A stretch of DNA of 32,000 nt from Gemmata obscuriglobus (GCF_008065095.1 NZ_CP042911.1:4140001-4172000), one strand, 5' to 3'. Positions 4,581-20,349 are shown, counted from the stretch's first letter. Made by a program: numbers and translations. Notes: generated from the letters alone by a model not told the origin.

Positions 4581-5984
4581 CTACTTCAGAACCTGGCGGA
4601 CCGGCTCGCCGTGGCAGATCGCGAGCGGGCGCCCCTGGGTGTCGTGGATCTCGGTGTCGCGCGGGATGCCGAGACAGTGGTAAATCGTTGCGTGGATGTC
4701 CTGCGGGAGAACGCGACCGTCCTTGGGGTACGCCGCGAGTTTGTCGCTCGCCCCGTGAACCGCGCCGCCCTTGACGCCGCCGCCCGCGAGCGCGATCGAG
4801 AAGCACGGCCCCCAGTGGTCGCGCCCGCCGGCACCGTTGATTTTCGGCGTGCGACCGAACTCCGCCATCCACACCACGAGCGTGTCTTCCAGCAACCCGC
4901 GGTCGGCCAGGTCCTCGATCAGCGCGCTGTAGGCGGCGTCGAGGACCGGCATGAGCTTTCGCACGCCCTCGGTGTTTTTGCTGTGGGTGTCCCAGTGCCC
5001 GTTGTTGGGCGCGTCCGGCACGCGGGTCCAGTTCACACGCACCAGTGGCACCCCCGCCTCAACCAGGCGCCGGGCGAGCAGGCACGACTGCCCGAACCGG
5101 GTCCGCCCGTACCGGTCGCGGGCGCGGGGGCCTTCGGAATCGAGGTCGAACGCCTTCCGGGCCGCCGGCGACGTGATCATCTCGAATGCGCGGCGCGTGT
5201 GGGCGTCGGCACTCAGTTCCGACACGCCGCTCCGGTGCGAGGGGTGCGCCTGCGCGCCGCCGAGCGCGTCGAGCAGCCCTTTCCGACCGTCGAACCGCGG
5301 CGCCGGCACGTCTGTCGGCAGGCTCAGCCCCGGGACCTCGAACGTGCCCAACTCGGGGGCGCAGTTCATGAGCCACGGGTCGCTGGCGCGCCCCAGGAAC
5401 CCCGCGTCCTGTCCGGGCCAGGTGAACCCGCCGTCGTTCGCGCTCTGTTCCGGTAGGGTGACCGCCGCCGGGAGCGTGCAGCGCGGCTGAAGCACCTTCT
5501 TCACCACCGCGCCCAGGGAGGGCCAGTCGTTGGGCGCTCCGGGCTTGGCGTTCTCGACCTGCATCGGGACGTGCGCGTGCCCGGTGGTCATGAAGTAGCC
5601 GCTGGCGGAGTGGGCGTTGTCGTTGGTCTGGCACGCCCGCAGGACCGCGATGCGCTCGGTCAGGCGTGCGGTGCGCACCATCGTTTCGCCGATCAGGAGT
5701 CCGGGCGTGGCGGTGCGGATGACGCCCATGTCGCCGCGGGCTTCGGCGGGCGAATCCGGCTTCGGGTCCCAGGTCTCCTGCTGTGGCGGTGCGCCCAACA
5801 GGAACAACAGAATGACGCTTCTGGGCCTTCGGGTGAGCGCCGGGCGTCCGTCTCTCGGCCCTTCAGCCGCAAGAAGTGTCGGAAGGGTGAGCCCGAACGC
5901 GCCGAGCGAGCCGACCGTGAGAGCTTCGCGGCGGGTGACACGGTCGCAGAGGCTCGCGGCCTCGCGGGTCAAAAGGGAGAGCAT
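4581..5984 (-). CDS. DUF1501 domain protein (sulfatase-like fold, Tat-type signal)
   Basis: ATG at 5982-5984 gives MLSLLTREAASLCDRVTRREALTVGSLGAFGL, a twin-arginine-like leader. C-terminal WMAEFGRTPKINGAGGRDHWGPCFSIALAGGGVKGG is the DUF1501 signature common in Planctomycetota. Confidence 0.9.
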   Translation of the reverse strand: MLSLLTREAASLCDRVTRREALTVGSLGAFGLTLPTLLAAEGPRDGRPALTRRPRSVILLFLLGAPPQQETWDPKPDSPAEARGDMGVIRTATPGLLIGETMVRTARLTERIAVLRACQTNDNAHSASGYFMTTGHAHVPMQVENAKPGAPNDWPSLGAVVKKVLQPRCTLPAAVTLPEQSANDGGFTWPGQDAGFLGRASDPWLMNCAPELGTFEVPGLSLPTDVPAPRFDGRKGLLDALGGAQAHPSHRSGVSELSADAHTRRAFEMITSPAARKAFDLDSEGPRARDRYGRTRFGQSCLLARRLVEAGVPLVRVNWTRVPDAPNNGHWDTHSKNTEGVRKLMPVLDAAYSALIEDLADRGLLEDTLVVWMAEFGRTPKINGAGGRDHWGPCFSIALAGGGVKGGAVHGASDKLAAYPKDGRVLPQDIHATIYHCLGIPRDTEIHDTQGRPLAICHGEPVRQVLK

Positions 5985-6543
5985 CGGCGGGGCTCGCGCG
6001 GGTGGGGGGAAGCGCGTCGGTCGGTGGGTGAGTTTAGTATGCCGTGAGGTGTGGTGGAAATGAAGCGAAATCCATGATCTTGAGATGGTGATCTTTCGCA
6101 TCCCCTCCGACGGTTTTACCGGCCAAGGTGTTGTTGACCGGGGCAAGGATTGCGCGCCGGTGTCTACGTCGCCAGCACCGACGCGCGAATCAATTTGGGA
6201 GGTGGAGCGGTAACTGCGGCGTTGGCGACTACGCCGACGAGATCGCGACTGGAGCAACGGGTTGGGTCACGGTCAGCGGTACAGGCTGGGCGGGCACGAG
6301 TTTTGACAGCGATGGTGCCCGCATGGATGTGACCGGATCGCAGATCACCTCGGGCGTTGGGCAGTCAGCGTAACCGGCCCTGTCTCCGGCATGGGCGCAT
6401 CTCACCAGGACGATGTCTCCTGTCCGTGCGTTGTTGCCCACTCGCTCGCCCGAAACGACCTCAATAAACCCCGTTGCCAACGCGACCGAAACGCGACACA
6501 CTGTCGTCACCCGCCACCGCTCCCCGCCACGTTTGGGTGCCTC

Positions 6544-9134: not shown

Positions 9135-10064
9135 TCACCACTCCGATACGTTCACCACTTCGCCGCCGGACCGAGTTGCAAGGGACGGGAGGATGTCGCG
9201 CGCGGCGTGGCGGAAGAAGTGAACCGACCCGTCGGCGAACAGAAAGTTCGCGCCGCCCGCATGAAGGCTCCAGTAGTGGTACCGATCGCAGGGGTTTTCG
9301 GTCCGACCGGGTCCAAACACAAATGGCCCGCCGCAGCGTTCGCCCGGTGGCGGGTAGTTGATGATTGGCATATCCTCATCGGGTCCGTAGAGCGTGCCCC
9401 AATAGCCGTTCGGCGGAGCCAACCGAGCGTACCATCCCCCGGCCTGGAACGTATCCGGCGGGGGGCGCTCTCCCACCGCTACCGTTTGACTGGCACCGTC
9501 CGAGATGTCTGTCAACCGCACACCCGGGTACTGCCCCATGACCCCATCATTGGCCTGCTTACCGCTCACGCCCATATACGACGTGCAGGCCATTGAAAGC
9601 CGGTCCCGAGTCGCCACCGGGGCCGTCAACCGACCGTCGGACGGACACTGGTAGGGTTTCACGACGGCGCTGAACCCGACGTGGGGCGGGTTACAGAGCG
9701 GGTCCAGAGGGTGCGTGACGAGGGCCCGCTCTGTTCCCTCCGACAACGCCGCTTGATCCATTTGCGCCAGTATTTGTGCCATCCACGTAACGGTCACGGG
9801 CGGTCGGCGCAGTGCGTTTTGGGGCACCCCGTCGGGCAACCGGCCGTGGGAGGCGTGGTAGTTCTGAAGGGCGAGACCGATCTGTTTCAGATTATTTTGA
9901 CAGGAGGTGCGGGCCGCTCCCCCGCGAATTTTTTGCACAGCCGGGAGCAAAAGGCCTATTAACAAGCCAACGATCCCCAAGACCACCAGCAGTTCCACCA
10001 AACTGAACCCGGGCCGTTCGGATGTGTTCGATGGGATACCAATACGGGCGGATGGGACGCTCAT
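9135..10064 (-). CDS. DUF1559 / H-X9-DG protein with prepilin-type N-terminal domain (second copy)
   Basis: ATG at 10062-10064. [54 protein letters not shown]; C-terminal [16 protein letters not shown]. Confidence 0.9.
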
Positions 10065-12328: not shown

Positions 12329-13453
12329 ATGCCAGCTTCACCAGATGTCGTCATCCTCGGCGGCGGCGTGATCGGCCTCACGTCCGCCTATTTCCTCGCG
12401 CGGGCGGGCGTGTCGGTCCACGTGTACGACCGCGGCGACCTCGGCCGCGAGGCGTCGTGGGCGGGGGCCGGGATCGTGCCGCCGGGGCACCCGGACCGCG
12501 CCGCGACGCCCGCCGACCGGCTCCGCGGCATCGGCTCGGCGCGGTTCCCGGAACTGTCCGCGGAGTTGCGCACGCTCACGGGCGTCGATAACGGCTACCG
12601 GCGCTGCGGCGCTCTGGAGTTTCTCTCTCCCGACGACTCCGATGTTGTGGACCTGTGGCGCGCGGAAGCGATCGCGTTCGAGCGCCTCACAGTGGCAGAA
12701 TCGCGGGCACTCGAACCGCTCGGCACCGTCGAAGGGGAGCCGTACCTCCTGCCGGGATGCGCGCAGGTGCGAAACCCGTGGCACCTCCGCGCACTGATTG
12801 CCGCGTGCGAACGCGCCGGCGTCGCGCTCCGACCGGGCGTAGGTGCGGACGGGTGGGAGTTCACCGACGCGCGGGTCACCGGCGTGCGGCTCTCGTCCGG
12901 TGCCGTCGTTCGGGCCGGCAACTACCTTCTGGCTACCGGGGCCTGGAGCAAACCGCTCCTCCAGCCGCTCGGACACACGCCGCACGTTTACCCCGTGCGC
13001 GGGCAGATCGCGGCGGTCCGCGGCGCGGCCGGGTCGCGCGTCCTGATGATGGGGAAGCGGTACATCGTTCCCCGCGGCGACGGTTTAACGCTGATCGGTT
13101 CCACGGAGGAACCCGAAGCCGGGTTCGAGAACCGCACCACGCCCGAAGGCATCGGCGGACTGGTCGCGTTCGCTCAAGCCGTGCTCCGGTTCGCGAACGG
13201 TCCGATCGTCGAGGCAAGTTGGTCCGGCTTGCGACCCGGATCTCCGGACGGGCTACCGTACCTGGGACCAGTCCCCGGCACGGACCGCGTGTTCGTCGCC
13301 GCCGGCCACTTCCGCGCCGGGGTGCAGCTCTCGGTCGGCACCGCGCAGGTAGTGACCGAACTACTGACCGGGCGACCGCCGTGTGTGGAGCTGCGCCCGT
13401 TCGCCCTGGACCGCCGCCCCGGGGCGAACGCGAAGACCGCGTTCCGGAGCTGA
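12329..13453 (+). CDS. thiO: FAD-dependent glycine oxidase-like oxidoreductase (DAO family, ThiO-like)
   Basis: N-terminal Rossmann motif DVVILGGGVIGLTSAYFLARAG. C-terminal WSGLRPGSPDGLPYLGPVPGTDRVFVAAGHFRAGVQLSVGTAQVV matches the ThiO/DAO pattern. Confidence 0.8.
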   Translation: MPASPDVVILGGGVIGLTSAYFLARAGVSVHVYDRGDLGREASWAGAGIVPPGHPDRAATPADRLRGIGSARFPELSAELRTLTGVDNGYRRCGALEFLSPDDSDVVDLWRAEAIAFERLTVAESRALEPLGTVEGEPYLLPGCAQVRNPWHLRALIAACERAGVALRPGVGADGWEFTDARVTGVRLSSGAVVRAGNYLLATGAWSKPLLQPLGHTPHVYPVRGQIAAVRGAAGSRVLMMGKRYIVPRGDGLTLIGSTEEPEAGFENRTTPEGIGGLVAFAQAVLRFANGPIVEASWSGLRPGSPDGLPYLGPVPGTDRVFVAAGHFRAGVQLSVGTAQVVTELLTGRPPCVELRPFALDRRPGANAKTAFRS

Positions 13454-13596: not shown

Positions 13597-15465
13597 ATGC
13601 AACCGACCGAACACCGCTCGGCCGTCGGTCAACTCGCCGACGACCTCCGCTGGCTCGAAGACCACTGCCGCCGGCAGCCCGAGCTGTCCGCGCACGCGGC
13701 CACGCTGCGGCTGGCGTCCGCGCTGACGCGCAACGTGATCGGGCCGTTCCTGGAGGGCCAGCCCCCCCGGCCGCTGCACGTTTCGGTGGTCGGCGGCGCC
13801 GGCGCGGGCAAGAGTACGGTGGTGAACTTCCTGGCGGGAGCAAAGGTCGCGGAGGCGAACCCGCAGGCCGGGTTCACACGCCACCCGACGGCGTTCCTGC
13901 CGCCCGGCCCCGCGTTCCAGTGGCCCAGCTACCTCGGCTTCCTCGGCTCGATGCACAAGCTCTCGGAAGACAAGCCCGCGAGCGTGGACGAGGACGTGTA
14001 CCAGGTGAAACGCGTCCCGCTGCCGGCGAGCGCGAAAGAGGGTTATTCGCACCCGTTGGGCGAGTTCGTGATCTGGGACTGCCCGGACATGACCACCTGG
14101 GCGGCGGAGAACTACGTCGGCCGGCTGCTCGAGATCTCGGCCCTGTCGGACGTGATCGTCTACGTGGCGTCGGACGAGCGGTACAACGACGCGGTCCCGA
14201 CCGAGTTCCTGCATTTGCTCGTGAAGGCCGGTAAGGCGGTCGTCGTGGCGCTCACGAAGATGCGCCCGCAGGACGCCGACGCGTTCATCGAGCACTTCAA
14301 GCAGGAGATCCTGGGCCGGCTCCCCAGGCTCCCGAACGGCGAGACGCCCGCCGTTCCCGTGGTCGCGATCCCGCACATGAGCGTCGCGGACCGGTCCGAC
14401 CCGGCGGGCGCCGGCGCGCACTACCGCGTCCAGTTGCTGAACCAGATCCTGGTTCAGTGCGAGAGCGACGCCCTGACGCGCGCCCGAACAGTGACCAACG
14501 CCGCGAAATACCTGTCGACCGCCGGTGAAGGGCTGCTCGAGGTCGCCAAGCGCGACTTCAGTGAACTGGACGCGTGGAAGTCCGCGGTGCAGTCCGGTAA
14601 GGCGGCCTTTGAGGAGCGCTACCGACGGGAGTTCCTCTCGGGGGAGCAGTTCCGACGGTTCGACCGGTTCCGCGAGCGCCTGACGGACCTGCTCGAGTTG
14701 CCGGCGGCCGGGCGCGTGGTCGGCGGCATCTTCTGGGGGCTCCGGGCGCCGTACCGGTGGACCCGCGACGCGATTTACGGGCTACTCGTACGCCCGGACG
14801 TGCTAAATCTGTCGGAAGAGTCGGTACTGTCGGGTGCGCTGGCGGGCTGGCTGGACGCGCTGCACACCGAGGCGCTGCGCAAGGCCGGTGCCCATGCGAT
14901 CTGGAAGCAGGTGTCGATCCGGTTCGAGTCGGAACTCGCGCCCCAGGCCCGGGACCGGTTCGCCACCGACTTCCGGTCCTTCGAGCTGAAAGAGACGGAC
15001 GACCTCGAACAGGCCGGCCGGGCGCTCGTGAACGGTCTGGAGAAGAACCCGGCGCTGCTGTACTCGCTCCGGGGCGGGAAGCTGGCGGTGGACCTCGCCA
15101 TCATCGGGGGCGTGGTGTATTCGACCTGGCCGCCGGGCTGGGGGCTGTTGCTCATCCCGCTCGGGGTGTCGGCATCCCACCAGACGGCGGAACTCGCCAC
15201 GCGGGCGGTGGCGGAAGGCGCGCGGCAGCGGGTCCGGTCGCACCGCGAGTCGCTGATGACCGCCTCCCTGAGCGCGCCGCTGGCGAACTGGCTGACCGAG
15301 TGGCCCGCGACCGGTGGGACGTCGCTGGAGAAGCTCCAGCAGGTGCTCCGCCGGGTGCCGGAGTCGATCCGCACGCTCGAAGAGCGAGTTGTTGCGAAGG
15401 CCGCCGCACTCACGCAGCCCAAAGAAGCACCGCCGGTGCCGGTCGCGGCTCCCGCCGGGCCGTAA
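13597..15465 (+). CDS. membrane-anchored dynamin-like / HSR1-type P-loop GTPase, paralog 1 (622 aa)
   Basis: First start codon after the thiO stop, within the long 12655..15465 frame (gataatagaggcATG). G1 GGAGAGKST (13792-13818), G2-like FTRHPT, Walker B/G3 FVIWDCPD, G4-like LTKMRPQD. A long helical middle follows, then a hydrophobic hairpin LAVDLAIIGGVVYSTWPPGWGLLLIPLGV near the C-terminus. Confidence 0.85.
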   Translation: MQPTEHRSAVGQLADDLRWLEDHCRRQPELSAHAATLRLASALTRNVIGPFLEGQPPRPLHVSVVGGAGAGKSTVVNFLAGAKVAEANPQAGFTRHPTAFLPPGPAFQWPSYLGFLGSMHKLSEDKPASVDEDVYQVKRVPLPASAKEGYSHPLGEFVIWDCPDMTTWAAENYVGRLLEISALSDVIVYVASDERYNDAVPTEFLHLLVKAGKAVVVALTKMRPQDADAFIEHFKQEILGRLPRLPNGETPAVPVVAIPHMSVADRSDPAGAGAHYRVQLLNQILVQCESDALTRARTVTNAAKYLSTAGEGLLEVAKRDFSELDAWKSAVQSGKAAFEERYRREFLSGEQFRRFDRFRERLTDLLELPAAGRVVGGIFWGLRAPYRWTRDAIYGLLVRPDVLNLSEESVLSGALAGWLDALHTEALRKAGAHAIWKQVSIRFESELAPQARDRFATDFRSFELKETDDLEQAGRALVNGLEKNPALLYSLRGGKLAVDLAIIGGVVYSTWPPGWGLLLIPLGVSASHQTAELATRAVAEGARQRVRSHRESLMTASLSAPLANWLTEWPATGGTSLEKLQQVLRRVPESIRTLEERVVAKAAALTQPKEAPPVPVAAPAGP

Positions 15466-15771
15466 CCACGGGGCACACGGGCGGAGGAAAAAGTCCCCGA
15501 ATGCGGTTTTAACCCGCTTCGTGCGACCGCGAGTGGGAACGCGGAACTCGAAACGGCTGGATTTGAAGCGTATCGCGTTCCTACTGAAATTCGGGCGAAG
15601 TGCAACGCGCCCGAAGAATGGGCACGACTACTGGTGCTCGTGCGGGACATTTACTGGGTATGTCGCACCCCTATTTGGGGGCAGTTTGCTACCGTTGCGT
15701 TCCCGGGGTGCCGCCCGGGCGATGCTGTCACCCCTTCCGGGGGTGAAGGGAAGCCAGGAGCAACGAATCGC

Positions 15772-17682
15772 ATGAGCGCGAGCGGACCCGAACAAGAAGA
15801 CGCCACCGCCACGACCGCCGTCGCGCCCGAGGTGCCGCCGCAACCGCTGCTGCGCACCCTCGCACCGCTCCTCCGCGGGCTGGAGCGGCCCGTGCGGTCT
15901 TGGCTCGACTCGCGCCGGAAGTACCCGCTCAGTATGATGCAGCGGGCCGAGCTGGAAGGGCTCGCCGACGACCTGCGGCGGCAGGCCGAGACGCTCGATG
16001 TCGAGAAGCCGCTATTAGTCGTGATGCTGATGGGGGGCACGGGTGTCGGAAAGTCGACGCTCCTGAACGCCCTCGCCGGCGGGCCGATCGCGCAGGCGTC
16101 GTTCACCCGCCCGACCACCCGCGACCCGGTGGTGTACTTCCACCACTCGGTCAAGTCGGAGCGGCTCGACCCGGCACTGCGGCTGTGCCGCCTGGTCCAG
16201 CACGACCGCGCGGGGCTCGAACAGAAGGTGATCGTCGACACCCCCGACGTGGATTCCAACGACCTGAGCAACCGCGACAAGCTGGTCGCCCTGCTGCCCG
16301 TCGCCGACATCGTGCTGTACGTCGGCTCGCAGGAGAAGTATCACGACCGGATCGTGTGGGACCTGTTCAAGCAGCAGCGGCAGCGCCGGGCGTTCGCGTT
16401 CGTACTCAACAAGTGGGACCGGTGCCTCACCGGCGAAAGCGGAATCCGGCCCGACGAGGACCTGCTCGCGGACCTCAAGGCCGAGGGGTTTCAGAGCCCC
16501 TTGCTCTTTCGCACCACGGCGCAACTGTGGCTCGACGCGGCGAAGACTCATTCCGGGAGCGGCCCCCCGCCCCGTCCCGCCGACCTCCCCGAAGGCGAGC
16601 AGTTCGCGCTCCTGCGGAGCTGGCTCGAACTGGGGCTGACGAAGCTCGAGATCGAAGCCGTCAAGGCGCGCGGGGTCGGGCAACTGCTCGCGCACGTCGC
16701 GCGCGTCGCCGAGGCGAACCGGCCGCCGGACCTCACCGCCGAGGCCGAGAAGGTCAAAACCGCGTGGGAGACAACGCTCGCGGACGAGGCGGATGTGCAA
16801 GCCGACGTGCTGGTCGGCACGCTGGAACCGTACCAGACGGAGGTCGAGCACCATTTCAGCGTCGAGGACCAGCAGCGGTTCCGCGGGCTGATGGCGGCGT
16901 ACCTGCGCGTCACCACGCGGCTCCGGTACGCCGGCAGCGGGCTGCGCGACCGCATCCCGTTAGCCGGGCTGAAGGGCAAGCTGCTCGGCGGGAAGGTCGA
17001 TACGCCGGTCGAGTGGAACCTGGGCGCGTTCGTGCAGGAGTGCGCCCGCACGGCCGGGGAGCGCGTGCTCGACCAGCGCACGGCGGCGCTCATCAACCGG
17101 TTACTCGTGGACGCCGAGTCGAAGGGGTTCCCCCTCACGCTGTTGAGCGAACCGGCGAACTCGGCGGGCCGGCTGGACTGGCGCGACAAGGTCACCCGCG
17201 CCGTGATCGACGCGCTCGCCGAAGTGGAGCGCCAGGCCACGAACCCGACGGGCTTCCGCCGGGCCTTGCGCGGCACGCTCACCGCCGCGGCGAACACGCT
17301 CCCGGAGATCGCCCTCGTGGCGACCGTCGGCACTCTGTTGTGGAACTTTTTCGTGCCCACGCCGAGCATCACCCCGGACATGTTCCAGATGTTGCTGGTG
17401 GTGCTGATCCCGCTCGTGGTGATCGTGGCGGTCCACCTGCTCATTCTGCTGCTGTTGCCGATCCGCTGGCCGACGATCCGCGCCGAGTTCCGCCGGCAGT
17501 TGGGTGACCGAATGGCAACGGAACTGGGGCGCGCGTACCTCGCGATTCCGGGCGAGGTCGCCGCCGCCATCCGTGAGGAGCGCAAACAGGTAGACAGGCT
17601 TGTGGCCGAAACGAAAGAAGTTGAGAACTGGCTCACCGAGCGCCAGCAGGCCGCACACGTGGGCGAGCTGTACGGAAAGTGA
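15772..17682 (+). CDS. membrane-anchored dynamin-like / HSR1-type P-loop GTPase, paralog 2 (636 aa)
   Basis: ATG at 15772 is preceded by AGGAG (15756-15760). An alternative in-frame GTG lies at 15634. G1 GGTGVGKST (16033-16059), G2 FTRPTT, G3 VIVDTPD, G4 VLNKWD. Helical stalk-like region, then two TM segments LPEIALVATVGTLLWNFFV and MLLVVLIPLVVIVAVHLLILLLLPI, then a C-terminal coiled segment. Confidence 0.85.
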   Translation: MSASGPEQEDATATTAVAPEVPPQPLLRTLAPLLRGLERPVRSWLDSRRKYPLSMMQRAELEGLADDLRRQAETLDVEKPLLVVMLMGGTGVGKSTLLNALAGGPIAQASFTRPTTRDPVVYFHHSVKSERLDPALRLCRLVQHDRAGLEQKVIVDTPDVDSNDLSNRDKLVALLPVADIVLYVGSQEKYHDRIVWDLFKQQRQRRAFAFVLNKWDRCLTGESGIRPDEDLLADLKAEGFQSPLLFRTTAQLWLDAAKTHSGSGPPPRPADLPEGEQFALLRSWLELGLTKLEIEAVKARGVGQLLAHVARVAEANRPPDLTAEAEKVKTAWETTLADEADVQADVLVGTLEPYQTEVEHHFSVEDQQRFRGLMAAYLRVTTRLRYAGSGLRDRIPLAGLKGKLLGGKVDTPVEWNLGAFVQECARTAGERVLDQRTAALINRLLVDAESKGFPLTLLSEPANSAGRLDWRDKVTRAVIDALAEVERQATNPTGFRRALRGTLTAAANTLPEIALVATVGTLLWNFFVPTPSITPDMFQMLLVVLIPLVVIVAVHLLILLLLPIRWPTIRAEFRRQLGDRMATELGRAYLAIPGEVAAAIREERKQVDRLVAETKEVENWLTERQQAAHVGELYGK

Positions 17683-17688
17683 CACCGC

Positions 17689-18639
17689 ATGGCTGATGGG
17701 AAGTGGATCACGGGCCTTTCGCCCGAAGTGCCGGTTGCGGAGGCGGCCGGTCGGGTTCTCGCCGAACGCTTCCGACTGGTACGGCAGTACCTCCCTCTCG
17801 CCGCGGGCCGGGCCTGGGAGGACGCCGAGTTCGTTCACCAGTTGCGCGTCGGCACCCGCCGCGCCTGCGCCGCGCTTCGCGTGTTTGCTCCCGCGTTCCC
17901 GCGGAAGCCCCTCAAAGCCACGAAGGAAGCCCTCCGCGCTCTGCGCCGGGCGGCTGGCGGCGCGCGCGACTGGGACGTGTTCCTCGCCGCCTTACCCGGT
18001 TCTACGGCGTTTCGGGGCACGGACGCAGAGCCCGCCCGCGACTTCCTGCTGGGATACGCCTTCGGCGAGCGAACCGTGGCGCAAGCCCACCTCGCCGACG
18101 CCGAGGCGCGACACGGTGCGGCGTTCCGCGCCGCGGCCGACGCGCTGCTGACCCGCGCCCACAACACCGAGAGCGCCGACGCCCCGGCAACCATCGGTCC
18201 TCTGGCGGTCGAGCAACTCGGCGAGTTGATGCGCGAGTTGACCGACGAGGCCGAAGCGAACCCGACCGAACCGGTCGACCTGCACGCCGTGCGGATCACC
18301 GCGAAGCGACTTCGGTACGCGATCGAAATCTTCGCGGCGTGCTTCCCCCGGTTTCTGAAGGACACTGTCTACCCGGCGGTGGAGCGGGTGCAAGAAGTGC
18401 TCGGCGAGGTCCAGGACGCCGCGGTCGGTCTGGACCGGCTGTCCGACATCCGGGGGCGTCTCGGTGCGGCGCTCCCCACGCAAATGGCGCGCGTGAAGCC
18501 CGGGTTTAACGAGCTGGCTTCCGAACTGCGGGCCAAGATCCCGGCAGGGCGCGAGGCGTTCGCAGCCTGGCGCCAGCAGTGGCTCGAAATGACTTCCATG
18601 TTCAAGCTCGAACTGATCTCAGCGACCATTACCGGATAA
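17689..18639 (+). CDS. stand-alone CHAD domain protein
   Basis: Starts 6 nt after the GTPase-2 stop. It is all-helical, with the repeated CHAD signatures FVHQLRVGTRRACAALRVF and LHAVRITAKRLRYAIEIFAACFP, plus VQEVLGEVQDAAV. Confidence 0.8.
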   Translation: MADGKWITGLSPEVPVAEAAGRVLAERFRLVRQYLPLAAGRAWEDAEFVHQLRVGTRRACAALRVFAPAFPRKPLKATKEALRALRRAAGGARDWDVFLAALPGSTAFRGTDAEPARDFLLGYAFGERTVAQAHLADAEARHGAAFRAAADALLTRAHNTESADAPATIGPLAVEQLGELMRELTDEAEANPTEPVDLHAVRITAKRLRYAIEIFAACFPRFLKDTVYPAVERVQEVLGEVQDAAVGLDRLSDIRGRLGAALPTQMARVKPGFNELASELRAKIPAGREAFAAWRQQWLEMTSMFKLELISATITG

Positions 18640-18642
18640 CGC

Positions 18643-20349
18643 TTACGGCATCACCCAATCGGTGCGCAGCCGGTACACGCGCACTTGCAGCCGGGGATGG
18701 TCTCGCCCCGTTACGGGACCGGCGCCGCCGTAGTAGTTCGGTACAGTCTTCGCCGAGAGCAGATCGTCGGCCGTAACGCCGCCCAGATCGTCCGCAACCC
18801 ATTCTGGAGGGTGCCGCACATCGAACCCCGCGTACGGCCGCGGGAACGGATCATCCGGCGGGTATTCGGGCACCACGAGGTAGTCCCCGGCACGCGCTTC
18901 CGTCTGCTGAGCGATGAGCGGCAGCATCCCGAATCGCTCGCAGTAGTACTGAAAACCCCAATGTCCGACGTACCACACCCGACCCGCCGACAACGGCTCC
19001 TCCGCTCGCGCCCGTGCAACCCGTAGCGCGGCTTCTTCGGCGCACAGCTTCTCGGGGTAAGCGTCAAGAGTGTCGATCGCGGCCACCAGCGCGCCGGCCC
19101 CCACACCCACACCAACGACCCATCGAGAGGGGCGGCGATCCTGACGTACACGGCAGACGCGGCTCAACACGCGTGCCGCAACCAGACCCAATACAACGCT
19201 GACCCCGATGACACGCCGGGCCGCCGGGAACGGCGCTAAGCCAATTGCCGCCGCCAGTTCGATGAGCAGCCAACCGGAAAGAAACAGCGCCCCGCGGTGA
19301 ACACGAACGCCCAGCCCCGTTCGGACGCGGAACAGCAGCACGCCCAAACATCCTGCTCCTGCCATCAGCCAGATGAGCCCGCTCAGTTGCCAGAACGCGG
19401 ACACCAAGTTGAGGTCGGAAATGATGGTCCACCGGCGCGGCAGTGTGACGAGCGAACCGAACCCGAGGCACCACAATGCGGCAGTTCCGGTAGTCCAGCA
19501 TCGTGCAACACGGAGCGCAGACATAGCAAGCAACCCGCTCCCGACGGCAAGACACCCCAGGTAACCGCCCAGTGGTGCGAGGAGAGGGAACTTGGACTCG
19601 ACGAAGGCGCTCAATCCGCCGCCGCCCGACGAGCCGGCGTGGAACGCGAAGTGCGATCGGCCGTACTTTGCGACGAGTAGAAATTCCCAGCCCGCAAATA
19701 ATGCAGCAGCAGCGAATACCGCGCACACGGCGGGAACCACGCGCCGGTGTGTGATCCCGTACCACGCGATCACCGCCGGAGCTACAAACGCGCTGTACTT
19801 CGTCTGCATCGCTAGCCCTGCGACACAGCCCGCGAGTGCCGCGAGCCCCAGACCACGCCCCGCGGCACGGATGAACAGTTCAACCGACGCCAGGGCGAGC
19901 GCCAGCGCCGGCACATCGAGCATCAGGTTCAGCGAGGGCAGAACGGCGGGCGAGAGCATCAGCACCGGCAGGGCAACACCCTCTATGCCCCGTGCGAAGC
20001 GGACCAGAAGCGTGTTCAAAGCCCATGCCAGGAGCAGCACGAACGGAAAGAGCCACAGCTTCAGGAGCCCGACGTGTTCACCGAACAGCGTCATCCCGAG
20101 CGCCAGCCAGTACGGCACCACGGGCGGGCACAGTACCTCCATCGCGGGTTCCGGCTGTGCCCACCAGAAAAGAGCGAACCCGTAGGGGTTGGTTGGGTGG
20201 GAGTGGATGTGCCGGGCAAACAGGAGGTACGCGGTGTCGTCCACCGTCACGGGTTTCGCAACGTTCGCGAGGGTGACAAACCCCGCCAGCACGAGTAACA
20301 GCCGCCCCCCGGCGCGTGGGACGGACGGAGAAAGTCGATCGGCGCTCAA
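18643..20349 (-). CDS. polytopic GT-C type glycosyltransferase (ArnT/PMT, GT39-like)
   Basis: TTG start at 20349. More than 10 predicted TM helices. VTVDDTAYLLFARHI in the first loop resembles the acidic GT-C catalytic motif. Soluble C-terminal domain. The stop is only 3 nt from the convergent CHAD stop. Confidence 0.7.
   Translation of the reverse strand: MSADRLSPSVPRAGGRLLLVLAGFVTLANVAKPVTVDDTAYLLFARHIHSHPTNPYGFALFWWAQPEPAMEVLCPPVVPYWLALGMTLFGEHVGLLKLWLFPFVLLLAWALNTLLVRFARGIEGVALPVLMLSPAVLPSLNLMLDVPALALALASVELFIRAAGRGLGLAALAGCVAGLAMQTKYSAFVAPAVIAWYGITHRRVVPAVCAVFAAAALFAGWEFLLVAKYGRSHFAFHAGSSGGGGLSAFVESKFPLLAPLGGYLGCLAVGSGLLAMSALRVARCWTTGTAALWCLGFGSLVTLPRRWTIISDLNLVSAFWQLSGLIWLMAGAGCLGVLLFRVRTGLGVRVHRGALFLSGWLLIELAAAIGLAPFPAARRVIGVSVVLGLVAARVLSRVCRVRQDRRPSRWVVGVGVGAGALVAAIDTLDAYPEKLCAEEAALRVARARAEEPLSAGRVWYVGHWGFQYYCERFGMLPLIAQQTEARAGDYLVVPEYPPDDPFPRPYAGFDVRHPPEWVADDLGGVTADDLLSAKTVPNYYGGAGPVTGRDHPRLQVRVYRLRTDWVMP

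Follow-up and report, generated by a model that had tools for sequence, protein, structure and literature searches.

Most bacterial dynamin-like proteins (BDLPs) are encoded side by side in operons, as pairs that form heterotypic complexes (PMC6104087). The divergent paralogues DLP1 and DLP2 of Campylobacter jejuni (Cj0411/Cj0412; 5owv, 5oxf) adjoin in one operon, and their heterotypic 2:2 tetramer tethers membranes (PMC6104087); the partners IniA/IniC of mycobacteria and DynA/DynB of Streptomyces act jointly, in membrane fission or, for DynAB, in division (PMC6715688; bioRxiv 10.1101/2025.06.23.661029). CHAD domains, in turn, bind polyphosphate (polyP) and decorate polyP granules, and stand-alone CHAD genes are common, usually beside genes for polyP-metabolising enzymes (PMC6537752). 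Here we analyse a stretch of 32,000 nucleotides (nt) of Gemmata obscuriglobus DNA (NZ_CP042911.1:4140001-4172000; hereafter the window), in which positions 13597-18639 hold two GTPase genes, G1 and G2, followed by a gene for a CHAD protein. A preliminary description had proposed that the three form an undescribed module, in which a BDLP pair is coupled to CHAD.

The reading that we favour, with a probability of roughly 0.45 for the whole, is that G1 and G2 are a heterotypic pair of the BDLP/mitofusin class, vertically inherited in Planctomycetota, to which CHAD is coupled. Translation of the open reading frames (ORFs) confirms the coordinates, lengths and common strand first given for the three genes, as well as the gap of exactly 6 nt between the TGA of G2, which ends at 17682, and the ATG of CHAD at 17689. 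The two GTPase genes had also been called consecutive, which holds for their order and strand but not for tight juxtaposition, a 306-nt spacer lying between them. The GC content of the window is ~65-70%. A chance ORF artefact can be dismissed as the source of the layout: each of the three proteins has hundreds of homologues, and numerous independent contigs repeat the gene order.

Fold and family of G2

Proteins of Gemmata sp. JC673 and Gemmata sp. SH-PL17 share 97% and 84% identity with G2. Homologues share 70-97% identity across Gemmataceae and ~30% across Planctomycetota, and full-length relatives, of which the named ones belong to Planctomycetia or Planctomycetota, reach down to ~30% identity. 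An exhaustive family search yields 3,194 clusters (50% identity) at E<1e-3, with 127 at E<1e-30.

An AlphaFold2 model of G2, computed from an alignment (A3) of 85 sequences with 29-97% identity, has a predicted local distance difference test score (pLDDT) of 86.6 and a predicted template-modelling score of 0.75; prediction from the single sequence gave a pLDDT of 44 and was unusable. Two N-terminal helices precede a compact seven-stranded G domain (residues ~80-260) and a long helical region, and the C-terminal part comprises hydrophobic helices at residues 495-527 and 537-561, followed by two returning C-terminal helices. When the model is compared with the PDB by Foldseek, ranks 1-48 are all occupied by the dynamin superfamily. 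Nostoc BDLP (2j68) stands at the top with E 5.6e-11; Campylobacter DLP1/DLP2 (5owv/5oxf), IniA (6j72), mitofusin 1/2 and Fzo1 are among the further matches, and SynDLP, OPA1, dynamin, Drp1 and Mx make up the remainder. The alignments are near full-length, at 650-830 columns. A check for a non-dynamin housekeeping GTPase family came out in the same sense, the first generic GTPase being MnmE at E 1.9e-5, ~10^6-fold behind the BDLPs. A family profile likewise matches 2j68 by sequence (E 4.8e-4), and Pfam Dynamin_N (PF00350) gives weak matches in 31 of 32 G2-family members at E<0.01 (best 2e-11), while G2 of the window itself stays below the gathering score (24.8 bits, cutoff 27, P-loop region only). 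To judge from the model, G2 very probably belongs, at the level of its fold, to the BDLP/mitofusin class, and the domain plan first suggested for it agrees with these matches.

Two hydrophobic stretches, residues 510-531 and 536-563, make up a predicted hairpin, which sits at the tip of the modelled helical trunk and probably anchors the protein in the membrane by two helices. A hydrophobic hairpin or transmembrane pair had been ascribed to both GTPases; such a pair is clear in G2, but G1 has stretches of only ~11 residues.

The best structural match, and the only dynamin-family protein that is also recovered by the sequence profile, is BDLP1 of Nostoc punctiforme (2j68/2j69/2w6d). As in G2, N-terminal helices are followed by a G domain, a helical neck and trunk, a hydrophobic element ~100 residues before the C-terminus and then returning helices. 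Identity is only 12-14%, however, G2 is without the glycine of the G3 motif, and the paddle of BDLP1 makes transient contact with membrane, while the hairpin of G2 resembles a permanent anchor. Permanent attachment, through two hydrophobic helices that form a hairpin near the C-terminal third, is found in mitofusin/Fzo1 (5yew, 5gom, 9kff), which share with G2 the G domain and the HD1 helical bundle (template-modelling score, TM-score, <=0.54 normalised on the target) and work, as mitofusins, in isoform pairs. Mitofusins are nevertheless eukaryotic proteins of the outer mitochondrial membrane, available for comparison as truncated structures only, and no orthology is implied.

To the Campylobacter DLP1 and DLP2 chains G2 aligns full-length, with E 7.7e-9 to 4.8e-8 and a best TM-score of 0.37 (DLP2). 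Identity is 10-13%; G2 differs in its D-x-P-D G3 motif, its smaller G domain and its strongly hydrophobic two-helix hairpin, in contrast to the transient lipid-binding tip of the DLPs. The Campylobacter operon likewise contains a third, unrelated gene (cj0413), which encodes an HcpA-like protein there, in contrast to CHAD here. The tethering tetramer of DLP1/DLP2 serves as our working model for G1/G2, which are known here from their genes. IniA/IniC and DynA/DynB are tandem BDLP operon genes as well, and IniA matches G2 in Foldseek at E 1.8e-8, but they belong to other phyla without detectable orthology, and their roles, drug tolerance and FtsZ-ring control, are not transferable to an FtsZ-less planctomycete.

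G1 and the conservation of the pair

The GTPase domains of G1 and G2 are related, with 27% identity in BLASTP (E 4e-9) and an hhalign probability of 99% (E 1.7e-18). G1 of the window reaches 15.8 bits with Dynamin_N (cutoff 27), over the P-loop region only, and 17 of 39 G1 homologues give weak matches, the best at 2e-4. Its short hairpin comprises two 11-residue windows with Kyte-Doolittle values of ~2.0-2.2, and no 19-residue window exceeds 1.4. From the sequence, G1 appears paddle-like at best, and the label 'membrane-anchored', given to both proteins, fits G2. We infer a BDLP nature for G1 from its length, the position of the short hairpin, the weak Dynamin_N matches of its homologues and its pairing with G2.

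Conservation was followed over 99 loci, 10 from genomes, 80 from metagenomes and 9 obtained by exact-protein look-ups; the genome scan, made with the broad alignment A1, was dominated by generic P-loop patterns, and its 10 loci are distant and non-planctomycete. The junction of G1 and G2 is kept in 36 of 44 loci, two of the negative calls being alignment artefacts, and the adjacency extends to planctomycete loci with ~30% G2 identity. A 4-nt ATGA overlap joins the G1 stop to the G2 start in at least 15 of 39 loci. The tandem arrangement recognised at the outset is thus conserved and often translationally coupled, and G1 and G2 are likely to act as a pair. A single fused G1-G2 ORF, considered for locus L048, was ruled out by the stop codon present there. 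One exception to pairing is seen in a distant planctomycete metagenome-assembled genome (L097, 3538-7019), where a G2-like gene of 672 aa (amino acids) occurs with no G1 and overlaps by 4 nt a sulfite/nitrite-reductase gene upstream.

Tandem GTPase pairs, often with a 4-nt overlap, also occur in Pseudomonadota, Chloroflexia, Mycobacterium and other Actinobacteria (L001-L008, L091-L096; for example L005, 6821-8506 and 8503-10101). In the GTPase domain they share 34-42% identity with G2, and a CHAD gene accompanies none of them; the pairs seem to represent a broader family of paired BDLP-like GTPases that apparently has no name.

GTPases canonically carry the motifs GxxxxGKS/T, a switch-I threonine, DxxG (switch II of the TRAFAC class) and N/TKxD. 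G1 and G2 depart from this G1-G4 motif set (here the motifs, not the genes), partially in G2 and to a greater extent in G1 (Table 1). The switch-I threonine is present in both families, within an invariant RPTT in G2 and as TRHP in G1, and the G3-like DTPDVD of G2 comes after a modelled beta-strand at residues 152-156. With its D-x-P-D G3 motif, compact G domain and mitofusin-like hairpin, the G1/G2 pair is probably a new, divergent BDLP subfamily; paired BDLP operons, at times extended by a third gene, are familiar (PMC6104087), so the subfamily is of a known kind.

The 306-nt spacer between the two genes is mostly an insertion specific to this genome, ~290 nt of it being extra in alignments with the close relatives L012, L017, L018 and L055. 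It has no match in Rfam and contains no promoter or terminator consensus; no repeat copy of it was found in the window or the fetched loci, and its RNA fold signal is weak (z-score -1.9). Conceivably it contains a promoter, or it decouples G2-CHAD from G1. Despite the spacer, the start codon of G2 still overlaps the terminal ATGA of an out-of-frame ORF (15314-15775).

The CHAD protein and its place behind G2

The third protein matches PF05235 over residues 25-251 with 127 bits (cutoff 25.6), and its nearest relatives of solved structure are CtCHAD of Chlorobium (6qv7/3e0s; E 3.5e-11) and RcCHAD of Ricinus (E 9e-10). Mutation of H253, R256, R260 or R418/Y419 in CtCHAD lowers polyP binding (PMC6537752); these residues align to H50, R53, R57 and R209/Y210 of the window CHAD. 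Among 25 CHADs linked to G2, H50, R53, R57 and R58 are invariant, as are H199, R202, K206, R209 and Y210 of the second motif. The 25 proteins otherwise share only 30-61% identity, and the invariance of the polyP-binding residues supports a conserved polyP-binding role. Like CtCHAD and the phosins found on polyP granules, the protein is by its sequence a 'long' CHAD of ~300 aa, the type with two four-helix bundles, with both basic motifs of the H-x-x-R-x-x-x-R type intact. It is a genuine and probably polyP-binding CHAD, and the earlier identification of a CHAD-only gene is upheld by the family match, the solved relatives and the intact basic residues. CHAD had been described as usually fused to CYTH triphosphatases; its occurrence here outside such a fusion is not unusual, stand-alone CHADs being common (PMC6537752). 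The known stand-alone genes differ in their company: they typically lie with polyP-metabolising enzymes (PMC6537752), whereas the window CHAD lies behind a BDLP gene and the 32-kilobase window has no ppk, ppx or CYTH gene.

A hidden Markov model of CHAD built from the loci gives 28 matches in the 99 loci, and in all 28 the matching gene is the next one after G2 and has the same orientation. The gap has a median of 22 nt and is <=20 nt in 12 of 26 cases. Within the Gemmataceae-like clade, defined by a G2 identity of at least 45%, CHAD follows G2 in 23 of 42 evaluable loci. The junction persists where the outer flanks differ, and also in L014, L035, L041 and L053, in which inserted genes separate G1 from G2 and G2 and CHAD stay tightly joined. 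CHAD and the next gene of the block, holB, are kept together in 6 of 18. In CHAD-less loci, downstream ORFs of similar size on the strand of G2 were considered as divergent CHADs and rejected, since they encode an epimerase, Uma2 or GGDEF protein or have no match.

The CHAD-bearing loci include the deepest branches of the clade in a neighbour-joining tree of G2 (L069, L071, L072, L056); the simplest history implies one gain followed by ~12-14 losses. The adjacency of G2 and CHAD is non-random but facultative, a lineage-specific add-on. Synteny, proposed as a check on the link, is strict from the side of CHAD but holds for only about half of the clade loci from the side of the pair, and the three-gene module originally proposed is no fixed unit. 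In the open literature that we searched, no paper joins CHAD with dynamin-like proteins and no dynamin-like protein is named in Gemmata or Planctopirus; within that literature the link is undescribed, as had been supposed, and the association of CHAD with a BDLP pair is new but facultative.

Surroundings, rival readings and meaning

The features of the locus are collected in Table 1. Housekeeping genes surround the pair (thiO-like, lipB, lipA, tmk and holB). The product of the first matches the NCBIfam ThiO model TIGR02352 with E 7e-58 and 196 bits, under the cutoff of 250.8. Its same-strand junction with G1 is kept in 23 of 32 evaluable loci, at G2 identities down to 33% (also in L015, L080 and L087), which is more often, and over deeper divergence, than the junction of G2 and CHAD; the conserved unit may be thiO-like-G1-G2. 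In L015 (43% identity) the block thiO-like-G1-G2-holB-tmk-lipA-lipB is complete, without CHAD; there the thiO-like gene overlaps the G1 start. The housekeeping neighbourhood, shared across deep divergence, and identities that track phylogeny argue for vertical inheritance of the pair and against a mobile defence island.

Table 1. Features of the G1-G2-CHAD locus; positions are counted from the first letter of the window.
Feature	Position	Strand	Remarks
ThiO-like FAD (flavin adenine dinucleotide)-dependent oxidoreductase (DAO family)	12329..13453	+	Upstream neighbour of G1; Pfam DAO E 4e-59
G1	13597-15465	+	622-aa GTPase, first member of the pair; MMR_HSR1 28.5 bits
G1 P-loop GGAGAGKST	13792..13818	+	G67, G71, K72, S73, T74 invariant, n=39
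G1 G3-like motif WDCPD	14074..14088	+	W160, D161, P163, D164 invariant, n=39; D-x-P-D, without the canonical Gly
G1 degenerate G4 motif LTKMR	14251..14265	+	K in 38/39; R/K/A at the Asp position
G1 short hydrophobic hairpin LAVDLAIIGGVVYSTWPPGWGLLLIPLGVSA	15082..15174	+	Residues 496-526, around WPPGW; paddle-like
G1-G2 spacer	15466..15771	.	306 nt; mostly an insertion specific to this genome
G2	15772-17682	+	636-aa GTPase, very probably of BDLP/mitofusin class, with predicted membrane hairpin
G2 P-loop GGTGVGKST	16033..16059	+	Invariant, n=85
G2 G3-like motif DTPDVD	16237..16254	+	D156, T157, P158, D159, D161 invariant, n=85; without Gly
G2 canonical G4 motif NKWD	16408..16419	+	Invariant, n=85
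G2 hydrophobic hairpin	17299..17460	+	Residues 510-563; Kyte-Doolittle 1.6 and 3.3; model helices 495-527, 537-561
CHAD gene	17689-18639	+	Stand-alone 'long' CHAD protein, 316 aa; PF05235 E 1.2e-36
First CHAD polyP-binding motif HQLRVGTRR	17836..17862	+	Aligns to the CtCHAD H..R...R motif
Second CHAD polyP-binding motif HAVRITAKRLRY	18283..18318	+	Aligns to CtCHAD LHELRIDCKKLRY

Convergent with CHAD lies a gene (18643-20349, minus strand) for a multi-pass membrane protein of 568 aa without a Pfam or NCBIfam match; its counterpart in Gemmata sp. SH-PL17 (65% identity) is at the corresponding position, and that in L056 (37% identity) lies farther downstream. On the minus strand the window also encodes two DUF1559 proteins (807-1922 and 9135-10064), whose N-methylation motifs resemble those of type IV pilins, and one DUF1501 protein (4584-6257); all are of typical planctomycete families, in keeping with the taxonomic origin of the window, and unconnected to the GTPase-CHAD finding.

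Relatives of G1 and G2 are listed in public records as '50S ribosome-binding GTPase', 'GTPase Era' or 'EcfA2', and on that annotation both would be ribosome-associated GTPases of the Era/EngA (MMR_HSR1) type. MMR_HSR1 is indeed the sole Pfam model above cutoff for either protein, and EngA/Der and Era are the best sequence-level matches in the PDB and NCBIfam; these searches, however, return for both GTPases mostly weak Era/EngA/IRG P-loop matches, which explain the labels and leave the family unsettled. The NCBIfam Era and Der models score 21-31 bits against cutoffs of 237-307 and cover only the core from P-loop to G4, neither Era nor EngA has a counterpart to the ~400-residue helical neck and trunk or the hydrophobic hairpin, and no KH or other RNA-binding domain is present. 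Together with the lead of the BDLPs over MnmE-type GTPases when the whole G2 fold is searched, this makes an Era/EngA identity extremely improbable.

A different proposal is an anti-phage system resembling Eleos (LeoA/LeoBC), a possibility raised in the preliminary description; CHAD would then be its sensor or effector. Eleos shares with the present locus a remote similarity at BDLP level and a multi-gene BDLP operon: the PADLOC LeoA and LeoBC models match G2 of the window at E 1.7e-6 and 2.6e-5 and 30 of 32 G2-family members (alignment A1; best E 4e-13), and a contribution to phage defence is known for BDLPs such as B. subtilis DynA (PMC12998192). The matches are nevertheless partial, being restricted to segments of the GTPase domain (LeoA: 25 bits, 66 residues), as any BDLP would give, and G1 reaches LeoBC at E 0.063 only; a match at the level of orthology is absent, and CHAD is not an Eleos component. 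The genes moreover keep a stable chromosomal position among housekeeping genes, with no other defence gene in the window and with G2 identities (70-97% within Gemmataceae) that follow phylogeny. We consider a defence variant of this kind very unlikely.

Several observations tell against the reading favoured here, for the pair as well as for CHAD. The TM-scores of G2 in Foldseek are low (0.23-0.39 on the query; <=0.54 on truncated mitofusin); such values are expected because hinged multi-domain proteins sit in different conformations, but they mean that the model does not prove its domains to be arranged as in BDLPs. By sequence, the compact G domain of ~180 aa is Era/EngA-like, and the ~400 residues of G1 outside its GTPase domain match neither G2 (by hhalign) nor any solved structure. 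In both families an aspartate replaces the glycine of DxxG, giving the invariant D-x-P-D, and the G1 family has lost the guanine-specifying aspartate of G4, so that ordinary dynamin-type GTP hydrolysis is not assured. As to CHAD, it is missing downstream of G2 in 19 of the 42 loci of the Gemmataceae-like clade, including close relatives of the window (L018, L019 and L022, with G2 identities of 84%, 79% and 73%), and is found in none of the six loci below 45% G2 identity, or of nine when three further look-ups are counted. The implied losses count on the same side, as do the CHAD-less loci with their mutually unrelated downstream genes (epimerase, Uma2, GGDEF, ROK, BamB-like, BBP7) and the gaps of >100 nt between G2 and CHAD in 8 of 26 cases. 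Because the region is partly a conserved housekeeping block, some of the adjacency is inherited synteny.

Alternatively, G1 and G2 could be a BDLP-class pair as in the favoured reading and CHAD only a passenger with no functional tie to them, inserted once behind G2 in an ancestor of the clade and kept by inertia or shared transcription, which we hold to be quite possible, at a little less than even odds. Its patchy presence, its losses and replacements, the long gaps and the lack of polyP-metabolism genes nearby fit such a history, and the wider retention of the thiO-like-G1 junction indicates that conserved order within the block need not imply a joint mechanism. Against a passenger stand the more frequent conservation of the G2-CHAD junction (55%) than of the CHAD-holB junction, its persistence down to 45% G2 and 30% CHAD identity, its survival of rearrangements on both sides, including the separation of G1 from G2, and the many gaps of 3-26 nt, which suggest co-translation. 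An exploratory comparison adds that, of the ten columns of G2 whose conservation is most specific to CHAD-bearing lineages, six are arginines (R471, R497, R69, R128, R368 and R35; binomial p 7e-4; 0 of 300 label shuffles), a post hoc result whose statistics ignore phylogeny. A functional coupling of CHAD to G1/G2 is accordingly put forward here as tentative, its chances falling somewhat below one in two.

If the BDLP/mitofusin-class reading is correct, G2 would be held in the cytoplasmic membrane or its invaginations by the two-helix hairpin in which its helical trunk ends. G1, made from the same transcript and in most relatives through an ATGA-coupled start, would bind G2 and might itself touch the membrane only by its short paddle-like loop. 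Nucleotide-driven hinge movements of the G1-G2 complex could then tether, fuse, cut or repair membrane, as has been shown for Campylobacter DLP1/DLP2, IniA and B. subtilis DynA. In the Gemmataceae-like clade, CHAD, produced just downstream of G2, would act as a facultative accessory and connect the membrane-bound pair with polyP: it might place polyP granules at the membrane, or it might adjust the pair to the polyP or phosphate status. In this scheme we infer the fold of G1, the G1-G2 complex, the GTPase and membrane activities and the physical or functional link to CHAD.

Planctomycetes lack FtsZ and are rich in membrane invaginations, and how they bud or divide is unexplained (PMC4164004), as are the dynamics of their endomembranes. 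An ambitious extension of the favoured reading, which we think unlikely, would make G1/G2 the conserved dynamin-type fission/fusion machine of the FtsZ-less Planctomycetota; in Gemmataceae, G2 would recruit polyP through the co-expressed CHAD, so that granules are tethered or enclosed in membrane invaginations, in the manner of acidocalcisomes, or remodelling is gated by polyP and energy status.

The invariant D-x-P-D in place of the universal DxxG of switch II is of interest for GTPase mechanism, and the dozen or so losses of CHAD provide natural comparisons of loci with and without it. For the biology of planctomycetes, a BDLP-class pair hidden under Era, '50S ribosome-binding GTPase' and EcfA2 labels is a candidate membrane-remodelling machine; should the adjacency of CHAD prove functional, it would connect such a dynamin-like machine with polyphosphate for the first time.

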